Source: Dickeya solani IPO 2222
Lineage (GTDB): Bacteria; Pseudomonadota; Gammaproteobacteria; Enterobacterales; Enterobacteriaceae
NCBI RefSeq assembly: GCF_001644705.1
Contig: NZ_CP015137.1
Location: 4,050,001 to 4,082,000, forward strand
Reading direction: 5' to 3'
DNA length: 32,000 bases
Each line of letters opens with the position of its first letter. Position 1 is the first letter of the stretch. The notes under the pieces were generated by a model. It saw nothing but the letters and a program-made list of their open reading frames with translations, was not told where the DNA came from and did no database searches. Of this stretch, positions 1-31,806 are shown piece by piece. Both the position numbers and the translations under genes were made by a program.

Positions 1-242
1 GTGGCGGACAGAATCGGCGACGTGTCATCAATATTATCGTCATGCCATGAGGCCAGCGCGTTGGCAAAGGCATGGCACTGACGCAACGTAACTAGCGACT
101 CATGTCTCTGCCATCGACCGTTTATTTTGGTGTGGATCTCGCCGGGGCGGTTGATGGCGATTTCCGTCAGGCCTGCCAGTGGCAGAAATTCACCAAATAG
201 CTGATGTTTCATAAAATCAAGCGACAGGTTTTCAGCGCTCAT
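1..242 (-). CDS. virB11: VirB11-type T4SS ATPase, N-terminal part only (continues beyond the window edge)
   Basis: I translated the minus strand from the ATG at 240..242 and it stays open to position 1: MSAENLSLDFMKHQLFGEFLPLAGLTEIAINRPGEIHTKINGRWQRHESLVTLRQCHAFANALASWHDDNIDDTSPILSA. This is typical of a VirB11 N-terminal domain. The start overlaps the virB10 stop. The ORF is missing from the supplied track because it is truncated by the edge. Confidence 0.8.
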   Translation of the reverse strand, partial: MSAENLSLDFMKHQLFGEFLPLAGLTEIAINRPGEIHTKINGRWQRHESLVTLRQCHAFANALASWHDDNIDDTSPILSA

Positions 243-2327: not shown

Positions 2328-3010
2328 TATTCCCCCCCCAGTTCTTTATCGCGCTGGTAGCTGGTGACGATGAACCCCAATGGGTTCACTTCTCGCTGGC
2401 TGTCCGTCAATTGTTTGCGGGGGAGGTAGCGGTAGGTCAGGCGGATGTTCCAGATATCCGTTTTGACCGTGTTATCCGCAATGCGGCGGATTATGCGTTT
2501 AACTCGCAAGGTTGCCAGGTGATCAGGGGCGGTGGCGGGGGCGTGAATGTTGGAAATAATCTCGACAGACACGACGTATTCCGCTTTATTGAAAATGACG
2601 TCAGGGGCCTGATTGCCGTTAAACTCGTCGAGATAATCCCGGTTCACGCTGTCGCTGTTGAAGAGCTGCACGTCGTCATAATCGCGCTGAAGCGCAAAAT
2701 AGTTATAGCCTTCGCGCAGCCGGACGTACTGGGCGGATAGCGCATGGGCCAGCGCGGCTTCGGTAGAGATATCCTTCTCCTTGAGACGGGTCATATATTC
2801 ATAGCGCCCGGTCTGTTTATCCACCGACCATAATTCGATGTCGGTGGTTTTCAGCGGCAGCAGAATAATCAGCGCGGTTATCGTTAGCGCCGCCAGCGCA
2901 AACCCGGTTGCAGCCATTCGCCACGCGCGCTTTTTTTCCCGTTCATCCTTTTCCAGCAGAACCGCTTCAAAGGTGCGGGATGACGCAATGAGGTTTTCGG
3001 TTTCAGACAT
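2327..3010 (-). CDS. virB8: VirB8 T4SS inner-membrane component
   Basis: The 227-aa bitopic protein has an N-terminal TM helix (AATGFALAALTITALIILLPL) followed by a periplasmic domain. It lies between virB7 and virB9. Confidence 0.85.
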   Translation of the reverse strand: MSETENLIASSRTFEAVLLEKDEREKKRAWRMAATGFALAALTITALIILLPLKTTDIELWSVDKQTGRYEYMTRLKEKDISTEAALAHALSAQYVRLREGYNYFALQRDYDDVQLFNSDSVNRDYLDEFNGNQAPDVIFNKAEYVVSVEIISNIHAPATAPDHLATLRVKRIIRRIADNTVKTDIWNIRLTYRYLPRKQLTDSQREVNPLGFIVTSYQRDKELGGE

Positions 3011-3143
3011 GTGTTGTCAGCTCCTGAATAATCGCGGGGGAATTGACCGGTTGAGGATCGCCGGATACCGGTGGGAGGTCGTGTTGATGCCCTGCGCAGC
3101 CCGTGAGGATGCACAGCATCAGAAAGACAATGCTGGATTTCAT
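3003..3143 (-). CDS. virB7: VirB7-like small lipoprotein (46 aa, below the ORF-track cutoff)
   Basis: Manual translation gives MKSSIVFLMLCILTGCAGHQHDLPPVSGDPQPVNSPAIIQELTTHV, with the lipobox LTGC. The stop overlaps the virB8 ATG by 8 nt. The position between virB6 and virB8 is the canonical one. Confidence 0.6.
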   Translation of the reverse strand: MKSSIVFLMLCILTGCAGHQHDLPPVSGDPQPVNSPAIIQELTTHV

Positions 3144-3230
3144 GGAAAGCCCTTGTTAACGGATACAGATATACCGTACCGACGGCGGTTGCCTCGACAC
3201 TCTGTGACGAGTTGGGGAGTGAGAAAGAAA

Positions 3231-4259
3231 TTAGCGATGACGCTGTTGGTTAAGGCGCTTCATACTCTCAATGGCGGCGGCACGCTTTTGCCAGGCGGAG
3301 ATGGCGTTGCCGGTGCCCGTGGCGATGAGTGTCCCGGCGGCATGGCTGCCTTTGGCGGCCAGCCGGGCCGCCGCCGCGCCGGTTTTCATCGCCGGTTTTG
3401 TTGCTTCAGATGACGTGCTCGCCAGACCGCGTAAGCCGCTCATGGTGGCCCCCTGCAAGGTGGCCTGAACGGCGATACCGCCTAATGCACCGGCGATTTT
3501 CGCTGAAAACCAAATAATGACGCCAGAAATAACGCCCGCAACACAACACTGAACACCAAGCGTAATGATATTGGCGCTGTCGGCAAAATTAACCGCCTTA
3601 TCTAAGATACCATCGAGGTAATTAATGACGATCCTGATTGATAACGCTGAAAACATCATCGTCAGGATGATCGTAAAAATAATTTTCAGCCAGTTGTTAA
3701 ACATCGGAATCAGGAACCCATACAACAGGCAGAAAATAAATAATGGCGCGGTCGTCGTCATTAATACAATGATGATTTCGGCTAACAGGTTAACCGTAGC
3801 GCCAAAGAGCAGTGTGACTATAACACCGGCCCAGACCAGAATTTCGGCAATACCGCCGTTGAGTTTTACATAGGCAGAATCATCCTGTTGATAAAGCTTT
3901 TGTCCAATTGTCTGTGCTTTCTCCCAGACGGTATCGAGCAATAACCAGACATTATCATCACCACTAACGCCGTCTTTTAAGCCGTTAATGGCCGCAATGG
4001 CTACATTCAGCCAGCCATCGAGATTTAAAACGAAAGTCATGATTAATAACATTCGCCCTATATCCCACATGACATCTTCGACGGGCGTTTGGCGTTTTCC
4101 GGCCAGGGTTTGATAACCCCGATAAGTGACAAATACAGTGAAGGAACTGACGGCGATGACGCTGACCATATCGCCATAGACGGAGGTTTGCCCCCGCAGT
4201 ATGGCTTGTAGGCCGTCAGTGATCGTGTTGTTCATTCCAACAAACATACCACCTGACAT
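3231..4259 (-). CDS. virB6: VirB6/TrbL-type polytopic T4SS inner-membrane protein
   Basis: The product is a multi-TM protein. The preferred start is the ATG at 4257..4259 (MSGGMFVGMNNTITDGL), preceded by AAAGGGG. The track ORF extends to 4340 and would overlap the upstream lipoprotein gene. Confidence 0.85.
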   Translation of the reverse strand: MSGGMFVGMNNTITDGLQAILRGQTSVYGDMVSVIAVSSFTVFVTYRGYQTLAGKRQTPVEDVMWDIGRMLLIMTFVLNLDGWLNVAIAAINGLKDGVSGDDNVWLLLDTVWEKAQTIGQKLYQQDDSAYVKLNGGIAEILVWAGVIVTLLFGATVNLLAEIIIVLMTTTAPLFIFCLLYGFLIPMFNNWLKIIFTIILTMMFSALSIRIVINYLDGILDKAVNFADSANIITLGVQCCVAGVISGVIIWFSAKIAGALGGIAVQATLQGATMSGLRGLASTSSEATKPAMKTGAAAARLAAKGSHAAGTLIATGTGNAISAWQKRAAAIESMKRLNQQRHR

Positions 4260-4270
4260 AGATTGCCCCT

Positions 4271-4495
4271 TTAGTTCAAATTGGGAACCTTGGCCTTTTC
4301 CTGACGGAGTTCGAATCGCGCTGCTCGCGCATTTTTGCAATCCTGCGAGTCTTCCCCAGATGATTCACACGCCTGATATCGCTGGTTCATTTCATCCGGG
4401 TGCGCTTTGTACCATTGTGTTGATTTGGGGTTGTCACATCCTGTTAGACAGCATGTGCCCAAAATAACCGAAAAAATGCACAGTGACGTCTTCAT
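4271..4495 (-). CDS. EexN-like entry-exclusion lipoprotein
   Basis: The product reads MKTSLCIFSVILGTCCLTGCDNPKSTQWYKAHPDEMNQRYQACESSGEDSQDCKNA, with lipobox LTGC. The WYK-HP-E motif and the position between virB5 and virB6 match pKM101-type Eex lipoproteins. A GAGG lies 7 nt upstream of the ATG at 4495. Confidence 0.65.
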   Translation of the reverse strand: MKTSLCIFSVILGTCCLTGCDNPKSTQWYKAHPDEMNQRYQACESSGEDSQDCKNARAARFELRQEKAKVPNLN

Positions 4496-4506
4496 GCTTA
4501 CCCTCA

Positions 4507-5223
4507 TCAATGATTGAAATCAGGAACCGGCGCGGCAAGTTGCTGTTCATTGAATGCATTTTGCCGTTGCTGCTCCAGCAGTGTTGCCCGCTGTTCCGCC
4601 TGCCTGACAGACATCTCCCACTGGCTGGTCAGGGCGTTCAGTTGCACGCTTTTGGCCGCGACGGCATTCGCCAGGTCCTGTGACTCTTTCGAGTCTCTGG
4701 CATTGGCGATGCGATCAGACAGGTCTGCGATGTCGTTTAACGTGCCCGTCATCCTGTCCTGAACCTCGCGGGTATTCTCAATCGCCAGTGCCTGATTGAG
4801 TAACAGTTGTTTGCAACTGTCCCGATAACGCAGGGATGCGCGGGACGGGTTACAGATATCAAACGATTGGTATTTTTTATATAACCCCTGAAGCGCGGAA
4901 GAATAGGAACCGTCTGGATTGGTCAGCAGGTCATCCAGTGAAATACCGTTCTTGCGAAGCGCGTCGATATCGTCTTTCAGGCTTTTCGCCTCGCGGAGAA
5001 ACCCCTGAATATCCCGTATCCCGGTTGCAGTCGCCAATTGCTGTTTATAGGCATCCAGCTCGTCTTTATAATGGGTAACGGTTTCCTGCCATTGCTTGAG
5101 TTTCTGCATCCATTGATTAATCGACTCGGTATTGTTGACTGCATCAAACACCGGGATACCGGCGCTTATCGCCGGTGCGGACAGCCATAGCGAGAGCGCC
5201 AGAAAGAGATAGCGGGTCTGCAT
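4507..5223 (-). CDS. virB5: VirB5-type minor pilus subunit
   Basis: The preferred start is the ATG at 5221..5223 (MQTRYLFLALSLWLSAPAISAGIPVFD), which gives a signal peptide and follows GGAGG. The protein is helical and coiled-coil rich. The track ORF start at 5319 would overlap virB4. Confidence 0.75.
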   Translation of the reverse strand: MQTRYLFLALSLWLSAPAISAGIPVFDAVNNTESINQWMQKLKQWQETVTHYKDELDAYKQQLATATGIRDIQGFLREAKSLKDDIDALRKNGISLDDLLTNPDGSYSSALQGLYKKYQSFDICNPSRASLRYRDSCKQLLLNQALAIENTREVQDRMTGTLNDIADLSDRIANARDSKESQDLANAVAAKSVQLNALTSQWEMSVRQAEQRATLLEQQRQNAFNEQQLAAPVPDFNH

Positions 5224-5248
5224 GGTGATTGACCTCCGAAGTGAAATC

Positions 5249-7996
5249 TCAGATGGCCTGTTCGAGGAAGGCCGCTTTCCAGTCGAGAGGGGACATGCCC
5301 TCCTGATAAAGCGCATCAAACCGTTTCAGGTTGTCTTCGCTCCCGCTCAGTAATTGGGTGAGGTTGCCGAGGACCGATAAGTCCATTCTTGCCAGGGCGA
5401 CAAAGGGCCGGGTTTCACCGGCGCGCAGCGGTGTTTTCACGATGACCATATAATGCTCTCCCGGGTCCAGATGACGGACGGTGTCATACACGCTGTCGGG
5501 GACGTTCATTTTCTCTACGTAATCCGCCCGGCTGGCTTTGGGATTGGCGAGAAAGAGTTGCGTGCTGCACTGCTCAATAATCGCGGGCGCGATGGGGTGC
5601 CTGACAATTTCATCGGGGGACTGGGTGGCGGGGATAAAAATGCCGTTCAGTTTGCGGATCACCTTGAGCATATTGAGGGAGAATTTGGAAAACTCGACAT
5701 CCGCCAGCCATTTCCAGAATTCATCCATGAACATCACCAACCGGCGACCGTCCAGCAGGCTGGTGACGCGGAACAGCAGGTAAAAGGTGATCGGGCCGCG
5801 TATGTCGTCGTCATCCAGAAATTCTGTTCCATCGATGCCGATGTTATCGCTCTCGCCGATGTTAAAGCTGTCCTCCGCGTTATCGAAAATCCAGCCGAAT
5901 TCGCCGCCCTGCGCCCACTGTTTCAGACGGATGCGCAGCCCGTTGGTTCTGGCCTCGCGGGTCGGCGGCTCGGGCAACACCTCCAGCAGCCGCGTAATAC
6001 CGTAACGGCGCAATTCCGGCGGGTAGTCCTGCATCAGGGTATCCACGGCGGCGCTGATGCGCGCCTCATCGCGCGGGTCGAGCGGTTTGCCGTTGCGACG
6101 GCACAACATGCGGACCAATTGCTTGATAAAGCTGATGTTGCGTCGGGTTGGCGCAAGTGAAAACGGGTTGAACCCGGCAGGCGTACCGGTGCGGATGCGA
6201 AAGTAACGCCCGCCCATCTGGCGGATCGACATCTCGGCGGCGCGGTCTTTATCAAAGTAAACGGTGGTCAGCCGTTTACCGGGGGCCGCAGCGGAAAATG
6301 TCGCAGGATTGCGGTACTTCTGCATCAGGTGTTGCATCATCGTCATCAGCAGGGTCTTCCCTGAGCCGGTTTTGCCGATGATGGCGGTATTCCCCGGCGT
6401 TTTCTCGTTGAAGTCATCCCGCCCGACCTGGCTGTCGTGCAGGTTCAGGTAATAACCCCCGCCGCCGGGCGATGTCAGAATGGCGATGGCGTCGCCCCAC
6501 GGGTTACCGCTGCGCTTGTGAGGGTGAAAGTTATGCAGGCTGCCCAGATCCGCGTAGTTCTGGCTGCTGACGACCACCAGCCGGGGGCGAAAGGTATACA
6601 TGCCGGGCAGTTGAGCCAGATACGCGGCAGGTAACGACAGCGTGGACAGCGAGGTCATGATACCGAGGTCGGTAAACGGCTGGGCCAGCGCGTGGGTCTC
6701 CCTGACCACCTGATCGGCACTGGCCGAGGACACCAGCAGGGAAAAATGGTATTTGCCGCAGGACACATGCCCGGACTGGAGCAAATCGCGCAAGACAATC
6801 AGCTCTTCACGCTGTGACATAGCGTCATCGTCGGTTGCATTCAGCCGTTTTTCCGCCAGCCGGATATGGTGTTGTGCTTCATCCCGCGCCATGCAGGTGA
6901 ACGACTGCGTCAGTACGTACTCGCTTTCGGCATACAACAGCGCATCCAGCAGGCCGGTCGCGGTCTCCGGCGAATAGTCCTTGATTTCCAGACTGCGAAA
7001 GAAGCGGGAGCCGCCGACGGTCTGGCATTCGGCAGTATCGGTGGTAAAAAACACATCCGGTGTACTGAGCGTGAGGTAAAACGGTGAACGGGTCACCGCC
7101 ACCGGCTGCCATTGGCCGGTGATCAGGCGATGGTAGAACGCCAGTTGCGAGGAGTAGACCCGTCCTTTCTCCTCATACGTTCCCAAAGGGGTCGCCATAT
7201 AGCGTGACAGTGCGCTGCCGAGTGCGGCGTGGTGCTCCAGCATGACCTTCAGCGCGTCATCCAGCGCGGCTTGCCTTTTTCCGGCGGGCTGTGTCTTCAT
7301 GGCCTTTTTCTCCAGCGCGGAGAAGGGCGCATAACAGACGGTGAAAAACAGCCGATGCCGCCAGAGCGGCTTCGCGTTGAGTGCCCGGTAATAGCGCGCC
7401 GCGACCTCGTCTGAAAACGGAATACCCGAGGCCGCGTCGAACGCATCCTGATAGGTCTCCCGGATACGGTGAATATAGAACGTGACCGGCAGCCCTTCAT
7501 ACGAGCGGATCAGGTTGTTGAGATGGCTTGCCATCAGCGTCAGGTGATGTTCATCCTCACATTCAAACAGGGTGCCGCCCAGCTCCCAGGAGGCGACGAA
7601 ATCACCGCGGCGGTTTCTGATGACGTGCGGGTGAAGGTGGGAAGAGTAAGGGATGTATTTATCCAGCGTGATGCGCGCGTTTAATTTCATCTTGTCGGTA
7701 AACTCCGAAATATCGACGGCGTCATACTGGTTTGCCAGTATCGCCGTCGCGCCGAAATAGCGATTGGTGGCAAACCGGCCACGGGTTTTAAACGCCAGCC
7801 ACAACAGCCCGAAATAATGGATATCGGCTCGGGCCTTCGCCCGCATTTCCAGCCAGGCCGGGATCAGCAGCAGTGCAAGGTAATAGCGGGTGTAAACCGA
7901 CAGCAGGACGATGGCCCCGCTGACGAGAACGAACGGGACGAGGGGAATGCCCATAATGGCGGCGGGCCGGGTGAGCGCTTTATTCAGGGTGGTCAT
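5249..7996 (-). CDS. virB4: VirB3-VirB4 fusion T4SS ATPase
   Basis: The product is 915 aa. The first ~100 aa look like VirB3 (LTRPAAIMGIPLVPFVLVSGAIVLL, two TM helices). The rest is VirB4, with Walker A GKTGSGKT and Walker B region RRLVMFMDEFW. Confidence 0.9.
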   Translation of the reverse strand: MTTLNKALTRPAAIMGIPLVPFVLVSGAIVLLSVYTRYYLALLLIPAWLEMRAKARADIHYFGLLWLAFKTRGRFATNRYFGATAILANQYDAVDISEFTDKMKLNARITLDKYIPYSSHLHPHVIRNRRGDFVASWELGGTLFECEDEHHLTLMASHLNNLIRSYEGLPVTFYIHRIRETYQDAFDAASGIPFSDEVAARYYRALNAKPLWRHRLFFTVCYAPFSALEKKAMKTQPAGKRQAALDDALKVMLEHHAALGSALSRYMATPLGTYEEKGRVYSSQLAFYHRLITGQWQPVAVTRSPFYLTLSTPDVFFTTDTAECQTVGGSRFFRSLEIKDYSPETATGLLDALLYAESEYVLTQSFTCMARDEAQHHIRLAEKRLNATDDDAMSQREELIVLRDLLQSGHVSCGKYHFSLLVSSASADQVVRETHALAQPFTDLGIMTSLSTLSLPAAYLAQLPGMYTFRPRLVVVSSQNYADLGSLHNFHPHKRSGNPWGDAIAILTSPGGGGYYLNLHDSQVGRDDFNEKTPGNTAIIGKTGSGKTLLMTMMQHLMQKYRNPATFSAAAPGKRLTTVYFDKDRAAEMSIRQMGGRYFRIRTGTPAGFNPFSLAPTRRNISFIKQLVRMLCRRNGKPLDPRDEARISAAVDTLMQDYPPELRRYGITRLLEVLPEPPTREARTNGLRIRLKQWAQGGEFGWIFDNAEDSFNIGESDNIGIDGTEFLDDDDIRGPITFYLLFRVTSLLDGRRLVMFMDEFWKWLADVEFSKFSLNMLKVIRKLNGIFIPATQSPDEIVRHPIAPAIIEQCSTQLFLANPKASRADYVEKMNVPDSVYDTVRHLDPGEHYMVIVKTPLRAGETRPFVALARMDLSVLGNLTQLLSGSEDNLKRFDALYQEGMSPLDWKAAFLEQAI

Positions 7997-8005
7997 CGTT
8001 TTCCC

Positions 8006-19434: not shown

Positions 19435-19953
19435 ATGCCAACTCCATGCTATATCAGCATCGAAGGGAAAACCCAGGGCAACATCACCGCCGGTGCCTTC
19501 ACCTCCGACTCCGTCGGCAACATCTACGTGCAGGGCCACGAAGACGAGATGCTGGTGCAGGAATTCAACCACGTCGTGACCGTACCGACCGACCCGCAGT
19601 CCGGCCAGCCGTCCGGTCAGCGCGTGCACAAACCGTTCAAGTTCACCGTCGCGCTGAACAAGGCCGTACCGCTGCTGTATAACGCGCTGGCCTCCGGCGA
19701 AATGCTGCCGACCGTGACCCTGAAGTGGTTCCGCACCTCGGTCGAAGGCAAGCAGGAGCATTTCTTCACCACCACCCTGACCGACGCCACCATCGTCGAC
19801 ATCAACAACCAGATGCCGCACTGCCAGGACCCGTCCAAGCAGGATTACACCCAGCTGATCGAAGTGTCGCTGGCCTACCGCAAGGTGGACTGGGAGCACA
19901 CCGTTGCCGGTACTTCCGGCTCCGACGACTGGCGCGCGCCGATCGAAGCGTAA
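19435..19953 (+). CDS. hcp: T6SS tube protein Hcp (TssD)
   Basis: The 172-aa product reads MPTPCYISIEGKTQGNITAGAFTSDSVGNIYVQGHEDEMLVQEFNHVV...KPFKFTVALNKAVPLLYNAL, a canonical Hcp sequence. The RBS is AAGGAG. Confidence 0.95.
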   Translation: MPTPCYISIEGKTQGNITAGAFTSDSVGNIYVQGHEDEMLVQEFNHVVTVPTDPQSGQPSGQRVHKPFKFTVALNKAVPLLYNALASGEMLPTVTLKWFRTSVEGKQEHFFTTTLTDATIVDINNQMPHCQDPSKQDYTQLIEVSLAYRKVDWEHTVAGTSGSDDWRAPIEA

Positions 19954-19962
19954 TCACGCCGT

Positions 19963-20034
19963 CACCCGGACTCCGGTCCGGGTGTTGTCGTTTTCAGCCT
20001 GCCCTGAGCGATGGAGGCGGTCATCGCTCAGGGC
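19963..20034 (+). terminator. Two stem-loops between hcp and vgrG (possible partial terminator or attenuator)
   Basis: The first hairpin is cacccgga/tccgggtg at 19963..19984, followed by ttgtcgttttc. The second has a 13-bp perfect stem, gccctgagcgatg/catcgctcagggc, at 20001..20034. Confidence 0.5.
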
Positions 20035-20065
20035 GGACGCAGACAGGGAATAAGGAGGAAGCCAG

Positions 20066-21928
20066 GTGGCCAACAGTACCGGATTGCAGTTTACCGTGAA
20101 GGTCGGCGCGTTGCCGGACACCACCTTCGCGGTGGTGGATTTTGAACTCGGCGAGGCGCTGAATCAGCCGTTCGCCTTGTCACTGAACCTGGCAAGCGCG
20201 TTACCCGGCATCGACTTCGGCGCGGTGCTGGACCAGCCGTGCGAGCTGCTGGTGTGGTACGAAGGCGAGCTGCAGCGCCGGGTCAGCGGCATCGTCAGCC
20301 GCTTTGCCCAGGGCGACACCGGTTTTCGCCGCACCCGCTATCAGGCCGAGGTGCGACCGGCGCTGTGGCGGCTCGGTCTGCGCACCAACGCCCGACTCTT
20401 CCAGACCCAAAAACCGGACGCCATTATCGGTACCCTGCTGGAAGAAGCCGGGATTACCGATTACGCCTTCGTCCTGCGCCACGACCACGCGGTGCGCGAG
20501 TACTGCGTGCAGTACCGCGAAAGCGACCTGGCGTTCATCAACCGGCTGGCGGCAGAAGAAGGGCTGTTCTACTTCCACGAGTTTGAAGCCGGTAAGCACC
20601 GGGTGGTGTTTGCCGATGACGCCGGCGCGCTGACCAAGGGCCCCGAGCTGTTCTTCAATCTTGCCACGCAAGGTTTGTCGGAAGGGGCGTACGTGCGCCG
20701 TTTCCGCTACGCCGAGGCGGTGAGCACCGCCGAGGTGGCGCTGAAGGATTACAGCTTCAAAACCCCGGCCTACGGACTGCTGCACAACAAAATGAGCAGC
20801 GAGCTGGACCACCAGCGCGAGTCCTACCAGCACTTCGACTACCCCGGCCGCTTCAAGCAGGACCCGAGCGGCAAGGCGTTTACCGGCTACCGGCTGGACG
20901 CGCTGCGTGCCGGGGCGATGACCGGCAGCGGCGAGTCCAACGCCGCCGAACTGATGCCAGGTGGCACCTTTACCCTGACCGAGCACCCGAACCCGGCGTT
21001 CAACCTGGCCTGGCAGGTGGTGGCGGTCACCCACAGCGGGCAGCAGCCGCAGGCGCTGGAAGAAGAGAGCGGTGGCGAGCCGACCACGCTCAGCAACAGC
21101 TTTGAGGTGGTGAAAGGCACCACCACCTGGCGCGCGGCCATGCCGTACAAGCCGATGGTGGACGGCCCGCAGATTGCCACCGTGGTTGGACCGGCGGGCG
21201 AAGAGATTTACTGCGACGAATTTGGCCGGGTGAAACTGCAGTTCCCGTGGGACCGTTACGGTGCCAGCGACGACCAGAGCTCCTGCTGGGTGCGGGTCAG
21301 TCAGGGCTGGGCCGGCGGGCAGTACGGGTTAATCGCCATTCCGCGCATCGGCCATGAAGTGGTGGTGAGCTTTCTGGAGGGCGACCCGGACCAGCCGATA
21401 GTGACCGGGCGGACCTTCCATGCCACCAACCCGTCGCCGTACCCGCTGCCGGCGAACAAGACCCGCACCTCGCTGCGCACCACGACCCACAAGGGGGCCG
21501 GGTTCAACGAGCTGCGCTTCGAAGACCAGGCCGGGCAGGAAGAGGTGTTTATCCACGCCCAGAAGGACATGAATACCGTGGTGCTGAATAACCGCAGTAC
21601 AGGGGTGGGGGGCGATCACGCAGAAAACGTCGGGCGGGATCAGGTGGGTGTTGTGGGGCGCCATCAGGTACTGAAAATCGTCGAAAATCAGGCGACTGAT
21701 ATTCAGGGGGCACAGAAAGTTGCGATAGGGGCGGGCCGTGAAACGGACGTGACGGGCAACGATAAATTGACGGTGACGGGAGACATCACGATCACCTCGA
21801 CCGGTGGTGATATCACGCTGTCAACTGCAGGTGGCGGGTCACTGACTATTTTCAAGAGCGGCAATATTGAGATCAAGGGCGTGCACATCGATGTGATCGG
21901 CAGTGAACGTATTGATTTGAATAAATAA
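20066..21928 (+). CDS. vgrG: T6SS spike protein VgrG (TssI), with no C-terminal effector extension
   Basis: The gene has a GTG start after AAGGAGG and encodes 620 aa. gp27/gp5-like motifs are present ([51 protein letters not shown]), and the protein ends in beta-helix repeats. Confidence 0.95.
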
Positions 21929-21945
21929 TCAGCAGGTTGTCCGCG

Positions 21946-22446
21946 ATGGCCATTGGCATGGCGGCTACCGATTATGACACTCCATCATTATTCGAGGCTT
22001 TCATTTTGACGACTCAATCTCCTGCCTACTGCGTTTTTACCGAAGGCTGCATCACACTGCCTGACGGCTACAAGGATCGTACGGTAAATGCATTTGTACC
22101 CGGAAAAGAAGGTGACGCAGCCATTACGGTTACCCGCGACACGCTCAATGAGGGGGAGTCGCTAAACGACTATATCGATCGACAACTGGCACTGATGTCG
22201 CAGCATCTCAAGGGGTGGAAAACACAGCCGCGTGAGGCGATCTGGCTAGGTCAGCAGGTGCTGGAAGGTGAAGGTGTCCAGGCGAGTTATCTCCGCGATG
22301 GTCAGCGTATCTGGCAGCAGCAGGCGGTATTTGCGCTGGATAGCGCACACATTCTTGTTTTCACCCTGTCGAAAACCGCCGTGTTATCTGATGTCGATGT
22401 ATCCCGGTTCAATGCCCTGCTGGGGAGCTTTACGTTTAACCAGTAA
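21946..22446 (+). CDS. DUF1795 (Eag/DcrB-like) T6SS effector adaptor
   Basis: FTEGCITLPDGYKDRTVNAFVP...GESLNDYIDRQLALMSQHLKGWK is the typical DUF1795 pattern, and the gene lies directly upstream of the prePAAR Rhs gene. The start is uncertain. An in-frame TTG at 22006 after GAGG would give about 146 aa, a more typical length. Confidence 0.8.
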   Translation: MAIGMAATDYDTPSLFEAFILTTQSPAYCVFTEGCITLPDGYKDRTVNAFVPGKEGDAAITVTRDTLNEGESLNDYIDRQLALMSQHLKGWKTQPREAIWLGQQVLEGEGVQASYLRDGQRIWQQQAVFALDSAHILVFTLSKTAVLSDVDVSRFNALLGSFTFNQ

Positions 22447-22463
22447 CGATAAGGAACATTGTT

Positions 22464-25400
22464 ATGTTTGAAGCGGCGCGCGTTGGGGATGGGATTGGGC
22501 ACTCGGGGGCTTTGGCTGGCATGATTGCCGGCACCATTGTCGGTGGGCTGATTGCGGCCGTTGGGGGCATTGCTGCCGGCGCGCTGTTTATGGCGGGGAT
22601 TGCCTCCTCCTGCCTGGGGGTTGGCGTGTTACTGGTTGGCCTCAGTTTTGCGGTTGGCTGGGGGACCGGTGTGCTGGCAGAAAAAGCCCGCGACAGCATA
22701 GCGGAGTCCGGTGCCAGCAGCATGTCGAAGGCAGGCACGCTCCTCACCGGTTCCCCGAATGTGTTTATTAATAGTCTGGCCGCGGTTATCGCCACCCAGA
22801 GTATGGCGGCCTGTAATAAAGATGGCCCTTCCATGCAGGTCGCTCAGGGTTCTTCCGGGGTATTCATCAACGGCCAGCCTGCATCCCGTCTGGGCGATAA
22901 AATCAACTGTGGTGCTTCCATAACAGAAGGCTCATCAAATGTTTATATTGGCGGTGAAACCCAAACGACACTGCCGATTAAGCCCGAAGTTCCCGCATGG
23001 CTCTATAAGGTCTCGGATTTAACGCTGCTTTTCGCCGGATTGGCTGGTGGTGCCGGTGGGGCATTTAGCAAGGTTGGAAAACTGGGACGCCTTCTGCAAA
23101 AACTTCCCGGGATCAATAAAATCCAGCGTATTGCCTGCCGTTATGGTGTGCTCATGACGGCTGTCGCCGCCGGGGGGATCATTGCCCGTCCGATCGATGT
23201 GGTAAGCGGGCAAAAATTTTTGGCGGGTGAGGATGAGCTGGATTTCGTCCTGCCTTCCCGTTTGTCCGTGTACTGGCAGCGCTGCTGGCGTAGCGGTAAC
23301 CCCGGTGACAGCGTACTGGGAACGGGCTGGAGCCTGTTCTGGGAAACGACGCTGACGCACTATCAGGATGGGCTGGTCTGGCGCGCGCCGTCGGGCGACC
23401 TGATTTCATTTCCTTTTGTGCCTGCCGGGCAGCGAACCTACTGCCCACCCGAAAAACGCTGGCTGGAGCATCATCAGGATGACAGCTGGTCCGTGTATGG
23501 CATCGATGGTGAAGTGTGGTATTACACCGCTTTGTCCTCACAAGGTAAGGCGGTGTTGTCACGTATCGCCGACCCGTGTGGCAATGACGTCCTCTTTTCC
23601 TGGAATGCGGACGGCACGCTTCAGACACTGAAGGACAGTGCTGACAGGCAGGTGACATGCCGGTATCGTGATGGGCGGCTGGAGAGCGTCTGGCTGGATG
23701 CGTCGACGTGTCTGGTGCACTATACCTACAACGCGCAAGGGCAACTGATCACCGTCACCGGGCGGGGCGGTAGCGTGCGCCGCCGTTTTACCTGGCAGGA
23801 TGATGGGTTGATGTCCAGCCATGAAGACGCCAACGGCCTGCTCAGCGAATATACGTGGCGGGAGATAGCGGATTTGCCCCGCGTGGTGGCATACCGCAAC
23901 AGTGCGGGCGAGCAGCTTACGCTGGAGTATGACTTTCCGGGGCGGCGCAGAACGGCGCGCCGGGATGACGGTTGCTGTGCACAATGGGAACTGGACGAAG
24001 ACGATCAGGTCGTCCGCTTTACCGATTACGATGGGCGGGAAACGGTACAGCGTTACAGCGATGGCGAGCTGTGCGAGGTCATTCTGCCCGGCGGTGCGAG
24101 TCGCAAGACCACGTGGGACAGCTACGGTCGTCTGCTCAGTGAGACTGACCCGCTGGGCCGGGAAACCCAATACCAGTGGTACCGGCTGACGGATAACGTG
24201 ACGCAAGTGACGTATGCGGATGGCAGCAGCGAGCTGAATCTGTACGACGACCTTAACCGGCTGGTGGAGGAAACGGACGCACTGGGGAACCCGACGCGTT
24301 ATCACTACCCCGGTGCGCAGGAGAGCCTGCCGGACAGCGTGACCGATGCGCTGGGCGGAACGGTGACACTGGCCTGGGACAGGCAGGGGCTGCTGACGGC
24401 ACGTACCGACTGTTCGGGGCAATGCACTACCTTTGAGTATGACCGCTATGGACAGTTGCTGACCTCTGTCGATGCGGAAGGTAATCGTACCCGTCGTGAA
24501 TGGGATGCGCATGGGCAACTGGCGGGCGTTATCTACCCGGACGGCCGCCGGGATACGCTGCGCTGGAATGAGCGTGGTCAGTTACAGGCGTGGCGCGATG
24601 CGCAGAACAGCGAGGTACGCTGGCAGTATAACGCGCTGGGCCAGCCGGTGAGTGTGACAGACCGGCTCCGCCGGGTAAAACGCTGGCATTATGACGTGCG
24701 TGGGCAGTTGCTGCGGCTGGAGAACGGTAACGGCGCGGAATACCGCTTTGGGTATGATGCAGTAGGTCGCCTGGTGAACGAGCGACGGGTGGACGGCGTT
24801 GAACTGACGTTCCGCTACGACGAGGCGGGCCACCTTTGTCAGCGATCGCAGCGTGGTCAGGCGGCGAATGATGAAGCCATACCGCACGTTTACCAGCATG
24901 ATGTCGCCGGGCAACTGGTTCGCCGCGCCCATGCCCATGCCGTGTTTCATTATCAGCATGATGACCGGGGACGGCTGGTTTCGCTGAAACGCGAGCCCAG
25001 TGAGGCAGGTCTTGCGCTGGGTATCAGCGCGGATGAGGTCAGGCTGAGTTATGATGCGGCGGGCTATCTGTCGGGTGAGCACGGCAGTGGGGGAGAGATT
25101 GCCTACCGGCGGGATGCTCTGGGGAATGTGAGCACCCTGTCACTGCCGGATGGCGACGAACTGCACTGGCTGCGTTACGGTTCAGGGCATGTCAGCGCGG
25201 TGAAATTCAATCATCAGGTGGTGAGTGAGTTTACCCGTGACCGGCTGCATCGGGAGATAACACGCACACAGGGACGACGCGAACAGCAACGAACGTATGA
25301 CAGTCTGGGCCGTCTGACGTCACAGCGCAGCGCGTTGTGGGAAGTGGCGGAGCCGGAGCAGCGGATATTGTCGCGGGCGCTGAGCTATACGGCATCCGGT

Positions 25401-26651
25401 GAACTGGCTTCGGTCAGGGATAGACTGCGGGGTGACGTCGAGTACGATTACGACGCCGAAGGGCGTCTGGTGAAACGGGCAGATGTACACTGGCAGGTTC
25501 ACCACCGGGCGTACGGGTATGATGGAGCCGATAACCTGCGGGACGCGGAAGACCGGCATGGTATCTTTCCGTTAGCCGATAACCGGCTGCTGCACTGGCG
25601 CAATCTGTGGAACCAGTATGATGGTCAGGGGAACCTGACGCGGCGGCGTGAAGGCGCAACAGAGCAGTATTATCAGTATGATGCGGATAACCGTCTGGTC
25701 GCGGCGCGTGGCCGGGGGCCGCAGGGCGAGTTCGTGGCGCGATATGGTTATGACGCGCTGGGAAGGCGAACCGGTAAAACGGTGACCTGGTGTGAGAGCG
25801 GGAAGCAGGAAGAAACACACTTTCTGTGGGAAGGCTACCGGTTGTTGCAGGTCAGGCAGCCTGACCGGAAAGAGAGTTACGTGTATGACCCAACGGTATG
25901 GTGGTCGCCGTTAGCACGTATCACACAGCAATCAGGATCGCGTGAGGGCGACATCCGCTGGTTCATCACGGACCGGAATGGTGCCCCGCTGGAGATGACG
26001 GATGCGGATGGCTCGGTCCGCTGGAGCGGCGACTATGGCAGCTTTGGCCGGCTGCTCGGACAGACACAGGACAGTGAAGGGCTGCGCGACGGCAAGACAG
26101 TGGAGCCGCAGCCGCTACGCTACGCGGGGCAGTACGCGGATGACGAAACCGGGCTGCACTACAACCTGTTCCGCTATTACGACCCGACGGTAGGCCGGTT
26201 TACCACACAGGACCCGATAGGGCTGGCGGGCGGGATCAATCTTTATCAGTATGCGCCTAACCCGTTATCTTGGGTTGATCCGTTTGGACTAACAGGGACA
26301 TATATTTTTACTGATGAAGTTACATCGTATATTGGTAAAGGGCCAGAGTCTCGAATGAATAGCTCCATGAACTATCGTATAGGTGGTAAATCTAATGCTA
26401 CACAATTCGCACATATGGATTTTGGTGACAATAAATTAGGTTTTATGGTCGAGCACCGATTGATGGAGAAATATAATGCCCGTTACTCCCCTGATTTTGC
26501 GAATAGTGAACGTATAAACTCACCAGGTAAAAAACTATATGATGCTGCAGATGCTAAAACTCAGAAGAAGGTTGATCAGCTAGCTAATAAACTAGACGAG
26601 AAATTTAAAGCATCTAAAAAATCCAAATCATCTAAAGCATCTACATGCTAA
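22464..26651 (+). CDS. rhs: prePAAR-TM-PAAR-Rhs polymorphic T6SS toxin with a variable C-terminal toxin domain
   Basis: The N-terminus MFEAARVGDGIGH carries the prePAAR motif AARxxDxxxH. It is followed by Gly-rich TM helices, a PAAR region and many YD repeats. The core ends with PLRYAGQYADDETGLHYNLFRYYDPTVGRFTTQDPIGLAGGINLYQYAPNPLSWVDPFGL, followed by a 119-aa AT-rich tail. Confidence 0.95.
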   Translation: MFEAARVGDGIGHSGALAGMIAGTIVGGLIAAVGGIAAGALFMAGIASSCLGVGVLLVGLSFAVGWGTGVLAEKARDSIAESGASSMSKAGTLLTGSPNVFINSLAAVIATQSMAACNKDGPSMQVAQGSSGVFINGQPASRLGDKINCGASITEGSSNVYIGGETQTTLPIKPEVPAWLYKVSDLTLLFAGLAGGAGGAFSKVGKLGRLLQKLPGINKIQRIACRYGVLMTAVAAGGIIARPIDVVSGQKFLAGEDELDFVLPSRLSVYWQRCWRSGNPGDSVLGTGWSLFWETTLTHYQDGLVWRAPSGDLISFPFVPAGQRTYCPPEKRWLEHHQDDSWSVYGIDGEVWYYTALSSQGKAVLSRIADPCGNDVLFSWNADGTLQTLKDSADRQVTCRYRDGRLESVWLDASTCLVHYTYNAQGQLITVTGRGGSVRRRFTWQDDGLMSSHEDANGLLSEYTWREIADLPRVVAYRNSAGEQLTLEYDFPGRRRTARRDDGCCAQWELDEDDQVVRFTDYDGRETVQRYSDGELCEVILPGGASRKTTWDSYGRLLSETDPLGRETQYQWYRLTDNVTQVTYADGSSELNLYDDLNRLVEETDALGNPTRYHYPGAQESLPDSVTDALGGTVTLAWDRQGLLTARTDCSGQCTTFEYDRYGQLLTSVDAEGNRTRREWDAHGQLAGVIYPDGRRDTLRWNERGQLQAWRDAQNSEVRWQYNALGQPVSVTDRLRRVKRWHYDVRGQLLRLENGNGAEYRFGYDAVGRLVNERRVDGVELTFRYDEAGHLCQRSQRGQAANDEAIPHVYQHDVAGQLVRRAHAHAVFHYQHDDRGRLVSLKREPSEAGLALGISADEVRLSYDAAGYLSGEHGSGGEIAYRRDALGNVSTLSLPDGDELHWLRYGSGHVSAVKFNHQVVSEFTRDRLHREITRTQGRREQQRTYDSLGRLTSQRSALWEVAEPEQRILSRALSYTASGELASVRDRLRGDVEYDYDAEGRLVKRADVHWQVHHRAYGYDGADNLRDAEDRHGIFPLADNRLLHWRNLWNQYDGQGNLTRRREGATEQYYQYDADNRLVAARGRGPQGEFVARYGYDALGRRTGKTVTWCESGKQEETHFLWEGYRLLQVRQPDRKESYVYDPTVWWSPLARITQQSGSREGDIRWFITDRNGAPLEMTDADGSVRWSGDYGSFGRLLGQTQDSEGLRDGKTVEPQPLRYAGQYADDETGLHYNLFRYYDPTVGRFTTQDPIGLAGGINLYQYAPNPLSWVDPFGLTGTYIFTDEVTSYIGKGPESRMNSSMNYRIGGKSNATQFAHMDFGDNKLGFMVEHRLMEKYNARYSPDFANSERINSPGKKLYDAADAKTQKKVDQLANKLDEKFKASKKSKSSKASTC

Positions 26652-27508
26652 GGGGTAATGCCGTGAAAACTGTTTTTTATAATGAAAACACACAAGAGCT
26701 TGAAATACCGTTTGATGTTCTTTCTAAGGGGGTTTCCTATGCTGAAAAAAATGAATTTAATAGTATTAAAATAATTAATCCAATAGAAAAGGGCAGCGTT
26801 GGGCTTGACTTAACCCCATTGGCTGGAAATAACAGTATATCTTCTGTTTATATCGCCGATGATGTCAATTTAAATAAGGTTGATTTATCGCCGCTATATG
26901 AAATGAATGCAATAAAAAAAATAACAATGCAATATTTAAAGGGAAAAATAGAGTTCTCTAAATTTTCTGCATTGGAAACTCTTTATATAACAAAAGCAGA
27001 CAGTGAAATAGATATATTAAATGTTAACGGATTAAAAGATCTTTTGTTGGTTTCTACAAAAAATATTGATTGTGGTTTTATATCTAATCTGAAAGAGTTG
27101 GAGTCTATTAGAATTAGTAGTGCTAAGCTCAAGAGCTTGTCAGGAATAGAATCTCTCTGTGAGCTGAAAACTCTAAGAATAACTTACTGTCCAAGTTTAT
27201 TAGATATTTCAGGTGTAAATAAAATAAAAAATCTATCTCATCTTTATGTCGAGAAGTGTAAGGGTTTGACCGATTTTTCCTTTCTTTCTGGCAATGAATC
27301 CATTAGAGATTTATTTTTGTCAGATGTTGATTCTCTCGCTTTTATTCCTTCAATGAAATCCATTGAAAATATTAAATTTTGGAATCTAAAGGATGGTGAT
27401 ATGAATTTCCTTTTTGATGCGCCAACGCTTAAGAAAGTTGATTTTCATCCTATGAAAAAAAACTATACTCACAAAAAAGATGAAATAAATAATATCATAG
27501 GAAAATGA
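26645..27508 (+). CDS. Leucine-rich-repeat protein, presumed cognate immunity protein
   Basis: The gene starts at the ATG at 26645, overlapping the rhs stop by 7 nt, or at an in-frame GTG at 26663 after AAGGGG. LRR-type periodicity is visible (LKELESIRISSAKLKSLSGIESLCELKTLRITYCPSLLDISGVNKIKNLSHLYVEKCKGLTDFSFL). It shares the AT-rich composition of the toxin tail. Confidence 0.7.
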   Translation: MLRGNAVKTVFYNENTQELEIPFDVLSKGVSYAEKNEFNSIKIINPIEKGSVGLDLTPLAGNNSISSVYIADDVNLNKVDLSPLYEMNAIKKITMQYLKGKIEFSKFSALETLYITKADSEIDILNVNGLKDLLLVSTKNIDCGFISNLKELESIRISSAKLKSLSGIESLCELKTLRITYCPSLLDISGVNKIKNLSHLYVEKCKGLTDFSFLSGNESIRDLFLSDVDSLAFIPSMKSIENIKFWNLKDGDMNFLFDAPTLKKVDFHPMKKNYTHKKDEINNIIGK

Positions 27509-27534: not shown

Positions 27535-27810
27535 AGGGTGAATATAAAACGCTTTCGGTTAGTGATAATTTACGATGTGACGTCGAGTACGATTACGAAG
27601 GGCGTTTAGTGAAACGGGCAGATGTACACTGGCAGGTGCACCACCGGGCGTATGGGTATGATGCGGCAGATAACCTGCGGGACGCGGAAGCTGGCATGGT
27701 GTCTTCTCGTTAGCCGAAACCGGCTGCTGTACTGGCGCAATCTGTGGAACCAGTATGATGATGGTCAGAAGAACCTGACGCGTCGGCGTGAAGGTGACAC
27801 GGAACAATGT
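27535..27810 (+). pseudogene. Orphan degenerate rhs core fragment
   Basis: The DNA and protein match the main rhs gene at about 25410..25670: DVEYDY(DA)EGRLVKRADVHWQVHHRAYGYD.ADNLRDAE...NRLL.WRNLWNQYD. The fragment has a 6-nt deletion and frameshifts, which split it between track ORFs 27519..27713 and 27622..27852. It has no N-terminus and no toxin tip. Confidence 0.8.
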
Positions 27811-28114
27811 TTGATCATTCAACAGCAGAGCAGCATGTTGATGATGAAGTAGCTACATTGTTGTTATTTGTTCCAATTAAATATCCAAAATCAGGTCGAT
27901 TAAATGAAAAAAAATTAAAGGAGTGGGTAGAAAAACGAAGAACTGCATCGTAGAAAATTATTTCTTTTAAGAAAGACTTGCTAATGCAATAAGGTGGATA
28001 AACTAGGCTGTGTCCCTTAATTAATTTTCACTGCCATCACCTGTCAACGTTGTGTGATTTTCCATCTCGCAGGTAATTAGGGATACAGCCTGAATTGAAT
28101 GAGAAAATGTCATA

Positions 28115-29041
28115 TTAATTAGATGCCGAAATGGATGTTGGCGAGCCGCGCTCCAGCGCAGTTTTTAGTGTGTCGCCGCTTAGATGGTCGGTGATACCAT
28201 CAGTTGATGCCCATTGCTCAAAAATGGACAACAGCTTATAGGGCTGCCTGATTAATGGGCTAATGGCCTCATTATGTTTACAGGCGAGCCAGAATAATCG
28301 GGATAGCGGCGTGGATATCCGCGTGGAAGACGATGCGGATGTTTGGTTTTTGGTCGGCATGTCGATTAACTTTTCCAGTTCAGTATGCCGGATGACAAAG
28401 CAGGCATCTTGAGGTAGGTCATGAATTGGAAAATAATCCTTTCGGAAGTCTGGATTCATGCCTTGTGGTAAAATTTTTTCATGAATATCGGTCGATATTT
28501 TTTCAGGAAGTCGCATGATTTTCTGATTGATCCTTTCCTGCCATGTGAGCTTTTCGAATACCTGAAATATCTCTCCTGAAAGGATTACCGATATACCGTA
28601 ATTGATCTCATTCGCACCGATGTGTGGCAATGGAATGTGTAGGGAGCGGGCAAGCAAGCGTTGTACCATAACGTACTCATATCCCGCTAAAAGTGTGTCA
28701 ATAATGGGCTGAGTGGGAGTAATGTATTTTCCCTCGGTACTGAGAATAAGATCTCGTTTGCCAAGGAAACTGCTTCGATCAAGCAAACAGAGCCGGTCGA
28801 TGAGTGAGTGCCCGACTGGCCGTAATTTCAATTTATTATCTAATGTTCGTATTTTTCGTAAAACAATCGGTGACTGGAAGTAGATGGAAAGGCTGATGTC
28901 TCCATATAAAGAATGGCGATAAATATCACTGTCTGTCAATTCTATTTTTGTTGTTTTCTTCGTTATTCTGATAGCCTCTTGTATCGTCATCCATTCAGGC
29001 ATACTGCTTTTAGTGTTTAAAAGGAAGGTTTGTTTTTGCAT
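28115..29041 (-). CDS. Hypothetical 308-aa protein, family unknown
   Basis: This is a long intact ORF in a moderately AT-rich region with no competing ORFs. The N-terminus WMTIQEAIRITKKTTKIELTDSDIYRH could be a small HTH. I recognised no catalytic motif. Confidence 0.55.
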   Translation of the reverse strand: MQKQTFLLNTKSSMPEWMTIQEAIRITKKTTKIELTDSDIYRHSLYGDISLSIYFQSPIVLRKIRTLDNKLKLRPVGHSLIDRLCLLDRSSFLGKRDLILSTEGKYITPTQPIIDTLLAGYEYVMVQRLLARSLHIPLPHIGANEINYGISVILSGEIFQVFEKLTWQERINQKIMRLPEKISTDIHEKILPQGMNPDFRKDYFPIHDLPQDACFVIRHTELEKLIDMPTKNQTSASSSTRISTPLSRLFWLACKHNEAISPLIRQPYKLLSIFEQWASTDGITDHLSGDTLKTALERGSPTSISASN

Positions 29042-30056: not shown

Positions 30057-30368
30057 ATGGCTAACATCGGCACCTTCACCGCACAAAACAACGGCTTCAC
30101 TGGCACCGTCCGCACCCTGACTTTGAATGTCAAGGCCAGGTTCATCCCCTGCGACAAAAGCAGCGAGCACGCCCCTGACTTTCGCATTCAGACCCTCGGT
30201 GGTTATGACATCGGCGCAGCCTGGCGGAAAATCAGCCAGGCCGAACGGCCTTATCTGTCGGTGACGCTCGACGATCCTTCCTTCCCGGCAACCCTCTATG
30301 CTCGCCTTATCGAAGACGAGAATGGCAAGCACCAGTTGATCTGGTCGCGCAGCAAACCGTCGGCCTGA
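30057..30368 (+). CDS. DUF736 domain protein (common on ICEs and plasmids)
   Basis: [31 protein letters not shown]...APDFRI...[39 protein letters not shown] matches the DUF736 signature as I recall it. The RBS is AAGGAG. Confidence 0.8.
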
Positions 30369-30523: not shown

Positions 30524-31806
30524 CTAACCGATGATAAAGTTTACTGCGCGCTCCCTGCATTCTCGCGCATAAAGATAGGGCGCAACGTATCCTTCCCGGT
30601 TCATGTCCAGATAATCCGACCACCATTGCATCATCGCTTTTCGGGCATCGAGATATTCCGCTTTATGAATGTAAGCCGCTCGAACGCTATTGCGTTCCTG
30701 ATGACTCATTTGACGCTCAACCGCATCCTGCGCCCACAGTCCAGATTCCATCAGGGCACTACAGGCCATTGCCCGGAACCCGTGGCCGCAGATTTCATCT
30801 TTTGTGTTATAACCCATCAGGCGCAACGCCTTGTTGACCGTGTTTTCGCACATTGGCTTATACGGATTATGGTCACCGGGAAATATTAGCTCCTGGTGCC
30901 CGGATATTTCCCGTATCTGTTTCAGAATAGTGATGGACTGACGGCAAAGGGGAACGATATGCGGCGTGCGCATTTTGGCACCACGCCCGGAATAACGCAC
31001 GCCGGGGATGGCTTTGCGGGTAGCGGGAATAGTCCAGATGTGGTTTCTGAAATCAATTTCCGACCAGCGAGCGAAGCGCAATTCGCTGGAGCGGATGAAC
31101 AGATGCAGGGTGAGCGATACAGCCAGCCGGGTTAATTCCCGTCCTTGCCGGTAGTCCTCAATGCGCGTCAACAGTTCCGGTAGTTGATCCAGCGGCAGGG
31201 CAGGGCAGTGACGTTTAACTGGCGGGGTGATAATACCGTCCAGATTGGCCGCCGGATTGTGTTCTATCAGTTCCTGATGCACGGCATAGCGCATGATGTT
31301 GCACAGGTGCTGCCGGGTACGGGCTGCCACTTCCAGTAAACCTTTTTTCTCAATCCCTTTCAGCAGGCCGATGAAATGGCGGGGTTTCAGCTCCGTGACG
31401 GGCTGGTGCCCGATAACCGGAAGAGATGGTTGTTCATACTGGCAAGCAGACGGGCGGCGTGGTTCTCTGACCATGTCCGGTTGCTCTTGTGCCAGTCCAG
31501 CGCTACGTCCCTGAATGATTTTTCTGGTGAGCGGGACGCTTTTTCCGCCGCCCGTTGGTGCGCGGGGTTGATATTCTGCGCCAGCAGTTTACGGATGCCG
31601 TCACGCTGTTGACGCGCATCGGCCAGCGATACATCGGGGTAGGTACCTAAACCGAGGCGGGATTCTTTTCTATTGATACGATATTTGAGATACCAGAGAC
31701 GTGAACCGCCTGGATTAACTAAAAGGTACAGACCGTGAGAATCGGAAACTTTGAAGGGTTTTGCGGATGGTTTTAAGTTGCGGATTTTTGAGTCGTTAAG
31801 AGACAT
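30524..31806 (-). pseudogene. int: P4-type tyrosine integrase, split by a 1-nt frameshift
   Basis: The N-terminal ORF is 31387..31806 (MSLNDSKIRNLKPSAKPFKVSDSHGLYLLVNPGGSRLWYLKYR) and the catalytic C-terminal ORF is 30524..31474 (HGFRAM...R, Y region). They are in different frames. The sequences would join as ...NNHLF|PVIGHQPVTEL if one C were restored in the run at 31417..31421. Confidence 0.85.

Follow-up and report, generated by a model that had tools for sequence, protein, structure and literature searches.

What is the short, AT-rich end of an otherwise GC-rich Rhs protein, and how is it related to the gene that follows it? This question is raised by a stretch of 32,000 nucleotides from Dickeya solani IPO 2222 (contig NZ_CP015137.1, positions 4,050,001 to 4,082,000 of the forward strand), hereafter the window, to which all coordinates refer. 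Here, a plus-strand open reading frame (ORF) at 22464..26651, stop included, encodes an Rhs protein of 1395 aa. Identical proteins are on record in CP051457.1 and in many further D. solani assemblies. The last 119 residues of this protein form its tip, and the next gene encodes a leucine-rich repeat (LRR) protein. We consider it likely, as the best explanation of this locus, that the protein is a class I prePAAR Rhs effector with a divergent GIY-YIG nuclease as its tip and an LRR protein as its immunity partner.

A cassette swapped onto a conserved Rhs core

The tip (residues 1277-1395, 26292-26648) reads TGTYIFTDEVTSYIGKGPESRMNSSMNYR...GFMVEHRLMEKYNARYS...KASKKSKSSKASTC. It starts immediately after the C-terminal cleavage motif of the Rhs core, which extends from DPIGL (starting at 26211) to DPFGL (ending at 26291), and the NCBIfam model Rhs_assc_core matched residues 1202-1276 of the protein. 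A preliminary description of this DNA, made from the letters alone, had proposed that the tip is a horizontally swapped cassette; its coordinates, ORF, and tip sequence were reproduced in our analysis. As it had also claimed, the DNA is AT-rich from the codon after DPFGL through the downstream gene, and GC content falls from 0.601 for the core to 0.361 for the tip and 0.298 for the gene that follows.

Comparison with the Rhs proteins of the same 90%-identity cluster (D. dianthicola, D. dadantii, D. chrysanthemi, and D. zeae) placed the breakpoint exactly. Residues 1-1276 of these relatives are 97-98% identical to those of the D. solani protein and align without gaps. The cleavage motif ends at residue 1276 in all of them, and the tips diverge from exactly residue 1277. 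Four other tips, mutually unrelated, were found on this near-identical Dickeya core, bringing the total to five. One of them, carried by a D. dadantii relative (P0194), resembles a more canonical URI/GIY-YIG domain (SVYGLF…YYVGIT…RRAAEH…RGYEQHY), and therefore two unrelated GIY-YIG-like cassettes circulate on the same Dickeya core.

The D. solani tip and its downstream gene also occur together in other genera. In Pectobacterium sp. PL152 the tip is 98% and the LRR protein 97% identical to those of D. solani, and in Trabulsiella odontotermitis the corresponding values are 87% and 67%. In both hosts an AT-rich cassette is embedded in a core of higher GC content; the homologous cassettes of Pseudomonas and Aquabacterium have a GC content near that of the host core. 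The exact breakpoint after DPFGL, the different tips on a near-identical core, the drop in GC content, and the presence of the same pair in Pectobacterium and Trabulsiella all bear out the proposed swap. This is the arrangement of a polymorphic toxin/immunity cassette: the tip starts at a DPxGL motif and differs among proteins with the same core, and the gene after it co-varies with it.

The exchange also left a trace in the neighboring DNA. Just 3′ of the LRR gene lies a decayed orphan fragment of Rhs core DNA (27554..27811, plus strand) with a broken reading frame, which forms a direct repeat of 25409-25671 (81-98% identity, spacing ~2140 nt). This fragment is a relic of tip-replacement recombination, of which such remnants are the usual scar. 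In Pectobacterium sp. PL152 (locus L003, 4228-5269), the same LRR gene and core relic are followed by an orphan tip (VDPLGL/NDNPLIGLDL…) and a small downstream ORF. This orphan tip module is retained in Pectobacterium sp. PL152 and lost in D. solani. No match to the region was obtained in a megablast search of complete E. coli genomes.

Fold and predicted active site of the tip

A word-indexed search found 12 close relatives of the tip. An exhaustive profile search with an alignment that included the Rhs core returned 67,697 matches at E<=1e-3, which represent Rhs cores and not the tip. The tip family was defined from those best-scoring proteins whose alignment extended over the tip columns, re-screened with a tip-only hidden Markov model (HMM). 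This yielded 52 full-length tips, 26-87% identical to that of D. solani. About 60 tip clusters at 50% identity were observed, nearly all on Rhs/YD cores, and the distant members are mostly metagenomic. Seven residues are invariant among the 52 tips (Y13, G15, G17, R21, S25, E54, and N71, numbered from the first residue of the tip), and six more are conserved in at least 90% of them (G2, Y4, K16, V53, S77, and G79).

Together with its stop codon the tip occupies 26292..26651 of the plus strand. No linker separates the Rhs cleavage site from the GIY-YIG-like domain (residues 1-~75), to which two helices and a Lys/Ser-rich tail ending in Cys are appended. The basic helical tail is shared by the family, and most members have a Cys within their last 1-3 residues. 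The Lys/Ser-rich tail of the D. solani tip (KASKKSKSSKASTC, 26607-26648) is about 8 residues longer than that of the Trabulsiella, Yersinia, and Pseudomonas homologues (…KASKGC). The element AAAGCATCTA is present twice in the tail DNA, ~27 nt apart, suggesting a small duplication.

The resemblance of the tip to GIY-YIG nucleases, pointed out in the preliminary description, was recovered by profile searches of the PDB, by profile-profile comparison, and by structure prediction, each with modest statistics and none through a match to a curated model. With a profile of 11 sequences, four of the six PDB matches were GIY-YIG proteins (E~0.5). With the 52-sequence profile this became seven of nine, among them the N-terminal domain of Thermotoga maritima UvrC (1ycz, E=0.0034) and the GIY-YIG structure 9u75 (E=0.011), so that significance rose with profile depth. 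The alignment with UvrC placed the G-x-Y, Y-I-G-K, R, and E residues in register. Two family members matched the Pfam family PF22945 (LEM-3_GIY-YIG) at E~0.005, below its cut-off; this was the top family by member count. The preliminary description had also proposed a HMMER comparison with Pfam and the PDB, which was fruitless for the single sequence; with the deep profile, it was the search of the PDB that succeeded.

For the profile-profile comparison, a UvrC profile was built from 25 UvrC N-domains, each of which carries a PF01541 annotation. hhalign aligned the tip family to this profile over 66 columns with a probability of 69.7% (P=4.2e-5). The score of 33.4 exceeded those of 40 column shuffles (mean 10.7, standard deviation 2.7, maximum 21.3) and that of the reversed profile (21.8).

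The AlphaFold2 model obtained from the 52-sequence alignment had a mean confidence (pLDDT) of 93.6 and a predicted TM score (pTM) of 0.85. Its secondary structure (strands 2-7 and 12-16, helix 19-30, strand 38-43, helix 47-60, then two C-terminal helices) has the order β-β-α-β-α. Foldseek, also put forward in the preliminary description, returned T. maritima UvrC GIY-YIG entries as the top five PDB matches (E 0.13-0.21, probability 0.84-0.90), with a target-normalised TM score of 0.53, a root-mean-square deviation of 3.5 Å, and 28% identity; the next match had a probability of 0.03. In BFVD, the named top matches were almost all GIY-YIG/Seg-type homing endonucleases from phages (E from 6e-3, probability up to 0.98). 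Thus, the core could be superposed on solved members of the superfamily, with modest E-values.

The conserved residues of the tip occupy the expected elements of this fold. The 'GIY' equivalent G2-T3-Y4 (26295..26303) lies in strand β1 and aligns to G17-V18-Y19 of T. maritima UvrC. The 'YIG' motif Y13-I14-G15-K16 (26328..26339) lies in strand β2 and aligns to Y29-I-G-K32, with a spacing of 9 between the two tyrosines versus 10 in UvrC. R21 (26352..26354), the predicted catalytic arginine, is near the start of helix α1 and corresponds to UvrC R39 in the HMMER alignments. E54 (26451..26453), the predicted metal-binding glutamate, lies within M-V-E in helix α2 and aligns to UvrC E76. N71 (26502..26504) aligns to an Asn of 9u75 and is the probable equivalent of the conserved GIY-YIG asparagine. 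The preliminary description had sought this asparagine in a Y-N-x-R-Y block, which turned out to be conserved only among close relatives. By alignment, Y4, Y13, G15, K16, R21, and E54 coincide with catalytic positions of GIY-YIG enzymes, and N71 probably does as well.

The position four residues after the catalytic Arg, on which one of the deviations from this pattern bears, is variable across the GIY-YIG superfamily. Several observations weigh against assigning the tip to GIY-YIG. Searched against Pfam (including GIY-YIG PF01541 and Tox-URI2 PF15653) and NCBIfam, the tip matched nothing at E<=1, and a single-sequence phmmer search of the PDB gave no match. None of the 52 family members matched PF01541 or PF15653 at E<=1, so the gathering score of the curated GIY-YIG model was not reached. 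The hhalign probability was 70% rather than above 95%, and the PDB Foldseek matches of the 52-sequence model reached E~0.13 only. A first AlphaFold2 model, based on 13 sequences (pLDDT 85), had no Foldseek match below E=2; therefore, the structural result depends on the deeper alignment. The invariant S25 (26364-26366) occupies the position of UvrC Y43 and of a His in I-TevI. The counterpart of UvrC N88 is ambiguous, since S66 aligns to it by spacing and N71 is the conserved residue; we infer that N71 is the equivalent. Moreover, the tip displays F-M-V-E instead of the [RK]xxE motif of the toxin clade Tox-URI1, discussed below. S25 is a deviation from canonical GIY-YIG domains, not an exclusion from them. 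The tip very probably has a GIY-YIG fold, because sequence profile, profile-profile comparison, predicted fold, and invariant residues agree, with no single number being decisive.

A GIY-YIG fold might also serve to cut RNA (tRNA or rRNA), in which case the LRR protein would resemble the ribonuclease inhibitor of eukaryotes in its action. RNases are the target of the best-known LRR nuclease inhibitor, and the putative immunity protein of this locus is likewise an LRR protein. A preprint on Stenotrophomonas, which describes a 'C6 UvrC-like endonuclease' among Rhs-Ct tips and an LRR immunity protein predicted by AlphaFold3, in silico only, likens that immunity protein to ribonuclease inhibitors (bioRxiv 10.64898/2026.07.13.738213). 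In addition, the invariant Ser that replaces Tyr/His could go along with an altered chemistry. Nevertheless, every structural and sequence neighbor of the tip, be it UvrC or a phage homing endonuclease, acts as an endonuclease on DNA, the tip has kept Tyr/Tyr/Arg/Glu/Asn in full (with N71 as the probable Asn), and, to our knowledge, no RNA-specific GIY-YIG enzyme has been characterised. Hence we regard RNA as an unlikely target.

Similarly improbable is that the likeness reflects chance, or convergence on a small β-β-α-β-α fold, and that the activity of the tip is an unrelated one. The missing matches to curated HMMs, the first AlphaFold2 model, Foldseek E-values of 0.006-0.2, and the hhalign probability would all be compatible with a coincidence. 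It is harder to reconcile with independent methods that converge on the same superfamily and gain significance as the profile deepens, or with shuffled and reversed controls that score far lower. Also, the invariant residues are the catalytic ones, and they occur in the right order, at the right spacing, and in the right secondary-structure elements. A GIY-YIG nuclease with DNA as its target thus continues to be our preferred reading of the tip.

The LRR protein as probable immunity partner

The gene downstream of the tip (26663..27508, plus strand) matched the Pfam families LRR_EndoS (6.7e-9) and LRR_4. It encodes 281 aa when read from GTG 26663, which is preceded by AAGGGG. The preliminary description had adopted ATG 26645, the start of the longest ORF, which overlaps the Rhs stop codon. 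We favor GTG 26663 as the likelier start because homologues begin there and because AAGGGG is a good Shine-Dalgarno sequence. Public records annotate both the 287-aa and the 281-aa versions.

Orthologues of this LRR gene were found directly downstream of homologous tips at nine of ten genome loci and at two of four metagenome loci. The pair was detected in Pectobacterium, Trabulsiella, Lysinibacillus sphaericus, an Aquabacterium metagenome-assembled genome (MAG), and four Pseudomonas species, with a fifth on a truncated contig. Hence, the co-occurrence of tip and LRR gene spans Proteobacteria to Firmicutes. On two metagenome contigs the tips are only ~40-50% identical to that of D. solani, and the accompanying proteins matched the LRR HMM at E values of 1e-54 and 1e-62. 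The protein encoded after the very divergent tip P0109 bears a weak resemblance to LRR proteins. An LRR gene located immediately downstream of a toxin and conserved with its tip across phyla is the arrangement of Imm-LRR, an immunity class described by Zhang et al. 2012.

Two loci speak against a strict pairing, as the tip is followed by an ankyrin-repeat protein in a Polyangiaceae MAG (L011) and by a 111-aa protein in locus L014. In the Polyangiaceae MAG (551-961 and 1237-2400), the tip ORF was called from an internal Met, and another divergent tip, with the pattern GKG-R-S-E-N, is found on a second Rhs fragment close by. The ankyrin gene may be an immunity replacement.

Because of its position, the composition it shares with the tip, and its co-variation with it, the downstream LRR protein is most likely the cognate immunity protein of the tip, to which it would presumably bind. 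Many of its orthologues in Dickeya, Pectobacterium, and Pseudomonas are named 'toxin' by RefSeq/PGAP, and one Salmonella enterica cluster of orthologues under this name comprises 707 member sequences. Since position and synteny indicate an immunity protein, the name is probably wrong. That the LRR protein is instead a co-delivered or accessory factor, with immunity encoded elsewhere, would agree with this naming and with the two homologous tips that lack an LRR neighbor, but it is highly improbable given the canonical immunity position of the gene (it starts 11 nt behind the toxin stop, or else overlaps with it), the GC content of the cassette that it shares, the absence of secretion-related domains, its co-variation with the tip across phyla, and the recognition of Imm-LRR as an immunity class.

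Proposed mechanism, known relatives, and genomic setting

The genes at 19435-27508 form a standard effector module of a type VI secretion system (T6SS), all encoded on the plus strand. It starts with the tube protein Hcp (19435..19953; Pfam T6SS_HCP, E=3.3e-32) and the spike protein VgrG (20066..21928; Phage_GPD 1.9e-92, Gp5_trimer_C, and Phage_base_V). These are followed by a DcrB/DUF1795-type (Eag-like) protein (21937..22446; DcrB 8.1e-33), a putative chaperone judging from its position ahead of the prePAAR-Rhs gene. The effector shell itself (22464..26291) consists of prePAAR, PAAR, DUF6531, and Rhs/YD regions, with Pfam matches to prePAAR_I, PAAR_motif, DUF6531, 16 copies of RHS_repeat, and RHS.

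We propose that the tip is the toxic cargo of this T6SS-delivered class I prePAAR Rhs effector. By analogy with known Rhs effectors, the Rhs shell would enclose the tip, self-cleavage after DPFGL would free a 119-aa protein starting with TGTY, and delivery would proceed via VgrG/PAAR. Our analysis supports the view that residues 1-~75 constitute a minimal, divergent GIY-YIG (URI) nuclease domain of the order β1-β2-α1-β3-α2, with a predicted active site of Y4, Y13, K16, R21, E54, and N71 around one divalent metal. Through a one-metal endonucleolytic attack, such an enzyme would most likely nick or cut the DNA of the recipient cell, and the basic helical tail (residues ~78-119) probably provides non-specific nucleic-acid binding. 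Meanwhile, the ~281-aa LRR protein would bind and block the tip in the producer and its kin; the distribution of the two genes supports the pairing, and the manner of inhibition is our suggestion. As the comparisons above show, the tip and immunity genes arrived together in a single AT-rich cassette, through recombination at the DPxGL boundary that displaced an earlier tip and left the orphan core fragment behind.

Toxins of this kind have been predicted before. The preliminary description stated that URI/GIY-YIG domains are listed among polymorphic toxin tips, and indeed Zhang et al. 2012 (PMC3482391) defined two clades of URI-fold nuclease domains, Tox-URI1 and Tox-URI2, which form the C-terminal ends of polymorphic toxins, Rhs proteins among them, that are exported by the T6SS among other routes. 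The signature of Tox-URI1 is Y, YxG, R, [RK]xxE, and N, and that of Tox-URI2 is Y, KxG, and [EQ]; the immunity partners listed for these toxins are Imm9/12/14/26/39/44/51, none of them LRR proteins (PMC3482391). Judged by signature only, the Dickeya tip is partly like Tox-URI1: Y, YIG, R, E, and N succeed one another as in that clade, but F-M-V-E stands in place of [RK]xxE. It is set apart from Tox-URI2 by the failure of PF15653 to match any of its family. When compared with other URI-looking Rhs tips (groups B-E), which Pfam barely recognises either, hhalign gave P values of 7.5e-4 to 2.6e-3, weaker than that obtained with UvrC. The family thus looks no closer to these tips than to UvrC.

T. 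maritima UvrC (PDB 1YCZ and 1YD0-1YD5) is the best match by sequence profile and by structure; the two have G-x-Y, Y-I-G-K, R, and E at aligned positions and are 28% identical over 74 columns. However, UvrC is a repair nuclease in a multidomain protein, and the Dickeya tip differs by the Ser at Y43, by the region after α2, and by its C-terminal helices. Among toxins, PAAR-RhsA candidate effectors of the Salmonella pathogenicity island 6 (SPI-6) T6SS have a predicted GIY-YIG DNase tip (PMC10469887, PMC11669294). The Salmonella GIY-YIG tips are recognised by InterPro IPR000305 and have CdiI-like immunity, whereas the Dickeya tip goes undetected by curated models and its partner is an LRR protein. 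The Stenotrophomonas C6 tip offers the closest parallel in description, being a PAAR-Rhs tip predicted as UvrC-like/GIY-YIG with LRR immunity. No Stenotrophomonas proteins occurred among the homologues of our tip or LRR protein, so no sequence link to the C6/LRR pair was found.

Within the genus, the RhsA and RhsB proteins of D. dadantii 3937 are reported by Koskiniemi and colleagues (2013) to be hcp-vgrG-linked Rhs DNase toxins that degrade the DNA of target cells. They reportedly share the hcp-vgrG-rhs-immunity layout of the D. solani module and differ in having tips of the HNH/NS_2 type instead of a GIY-YIG-like one. A 2025 survey of Dickeya and Pectobacterium Rhs tips lists GIY-YIG_SF among the predicted DNase tip domains and leaves most Dickeya tips without a predicted function. 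Because of the 2012 classification, the Salmonella surveys, the 2025 Dickeya survey, and the 2026 Stenotrophomonas preprint, the tip is to be regarded as a new family of a previously predicted kind of toxin and not as a new kind of system. Our literature search found no experimental study of this tip family. The suggestion of the preliminary description that the pairing of tip and LRR protein is uncharacterised holds as far as experiments are concerned; as a prediction, LRR immunity for a 'UvrC-like' Rhs tip is already contained in the 2026 preprint.

We put forward, tentatively and at somewhat less than even chances, that these tips form a distinct and unnamed clade of minimal GIY-YIG toxins. 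Such a clade would be defined by a domain placed directly at the cleavage site and by an invariant Ser in place of Tyr/His, and it would have evolved jointly with a single dedicated family of ~285-aa LRR inhibitors in Proteobacteria, Bacteroidota, and Firmicutes. If so, the pair would be a bacterial DNase/LRR-inhibitor counterpart of RNase A and ribonuclease inhibitor. The conserved pair of toxin and LRR inhibitor would be well suited as a structural model for the inhibition of a DNase by a repeat scaffold. For D. solani, a potato pathogen, our analysis provides a testable mechanism (a metal-dependent GIY-YIG DNase) and named catalytic residues for a tip that databases leave blank. It also corrects RefSeq, where a protein that most likely confers immunity bears the name 'toxin'. 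The general understanding of Rhs/T6SS effectors is unchanged by these findings.

Finally, the window contains further genes on either side of the module. VirB-type type IV secretion genes lie upstream on the minus strand (1-8000), including a VirB3/VirB4 fusion at 5249-7996 and a TrbL/VirB6 gene at 3231-4340, and AlpA- and HTH (helix-turn-helix)-type genes also precede the hcp-vgrG-rhs module. No tRNA gene marking an island boundary was found in the 32-kb window. Downstream of the cassette are a minus-strand ORF of 308 aa without a Pfam match (28115-29041, GC 0.43), a DUF736 gene (30057-30368), and a tyrosine integrase (30524-31474). The hcp-vgrG-rhs module may lie within or beside an integrative element.

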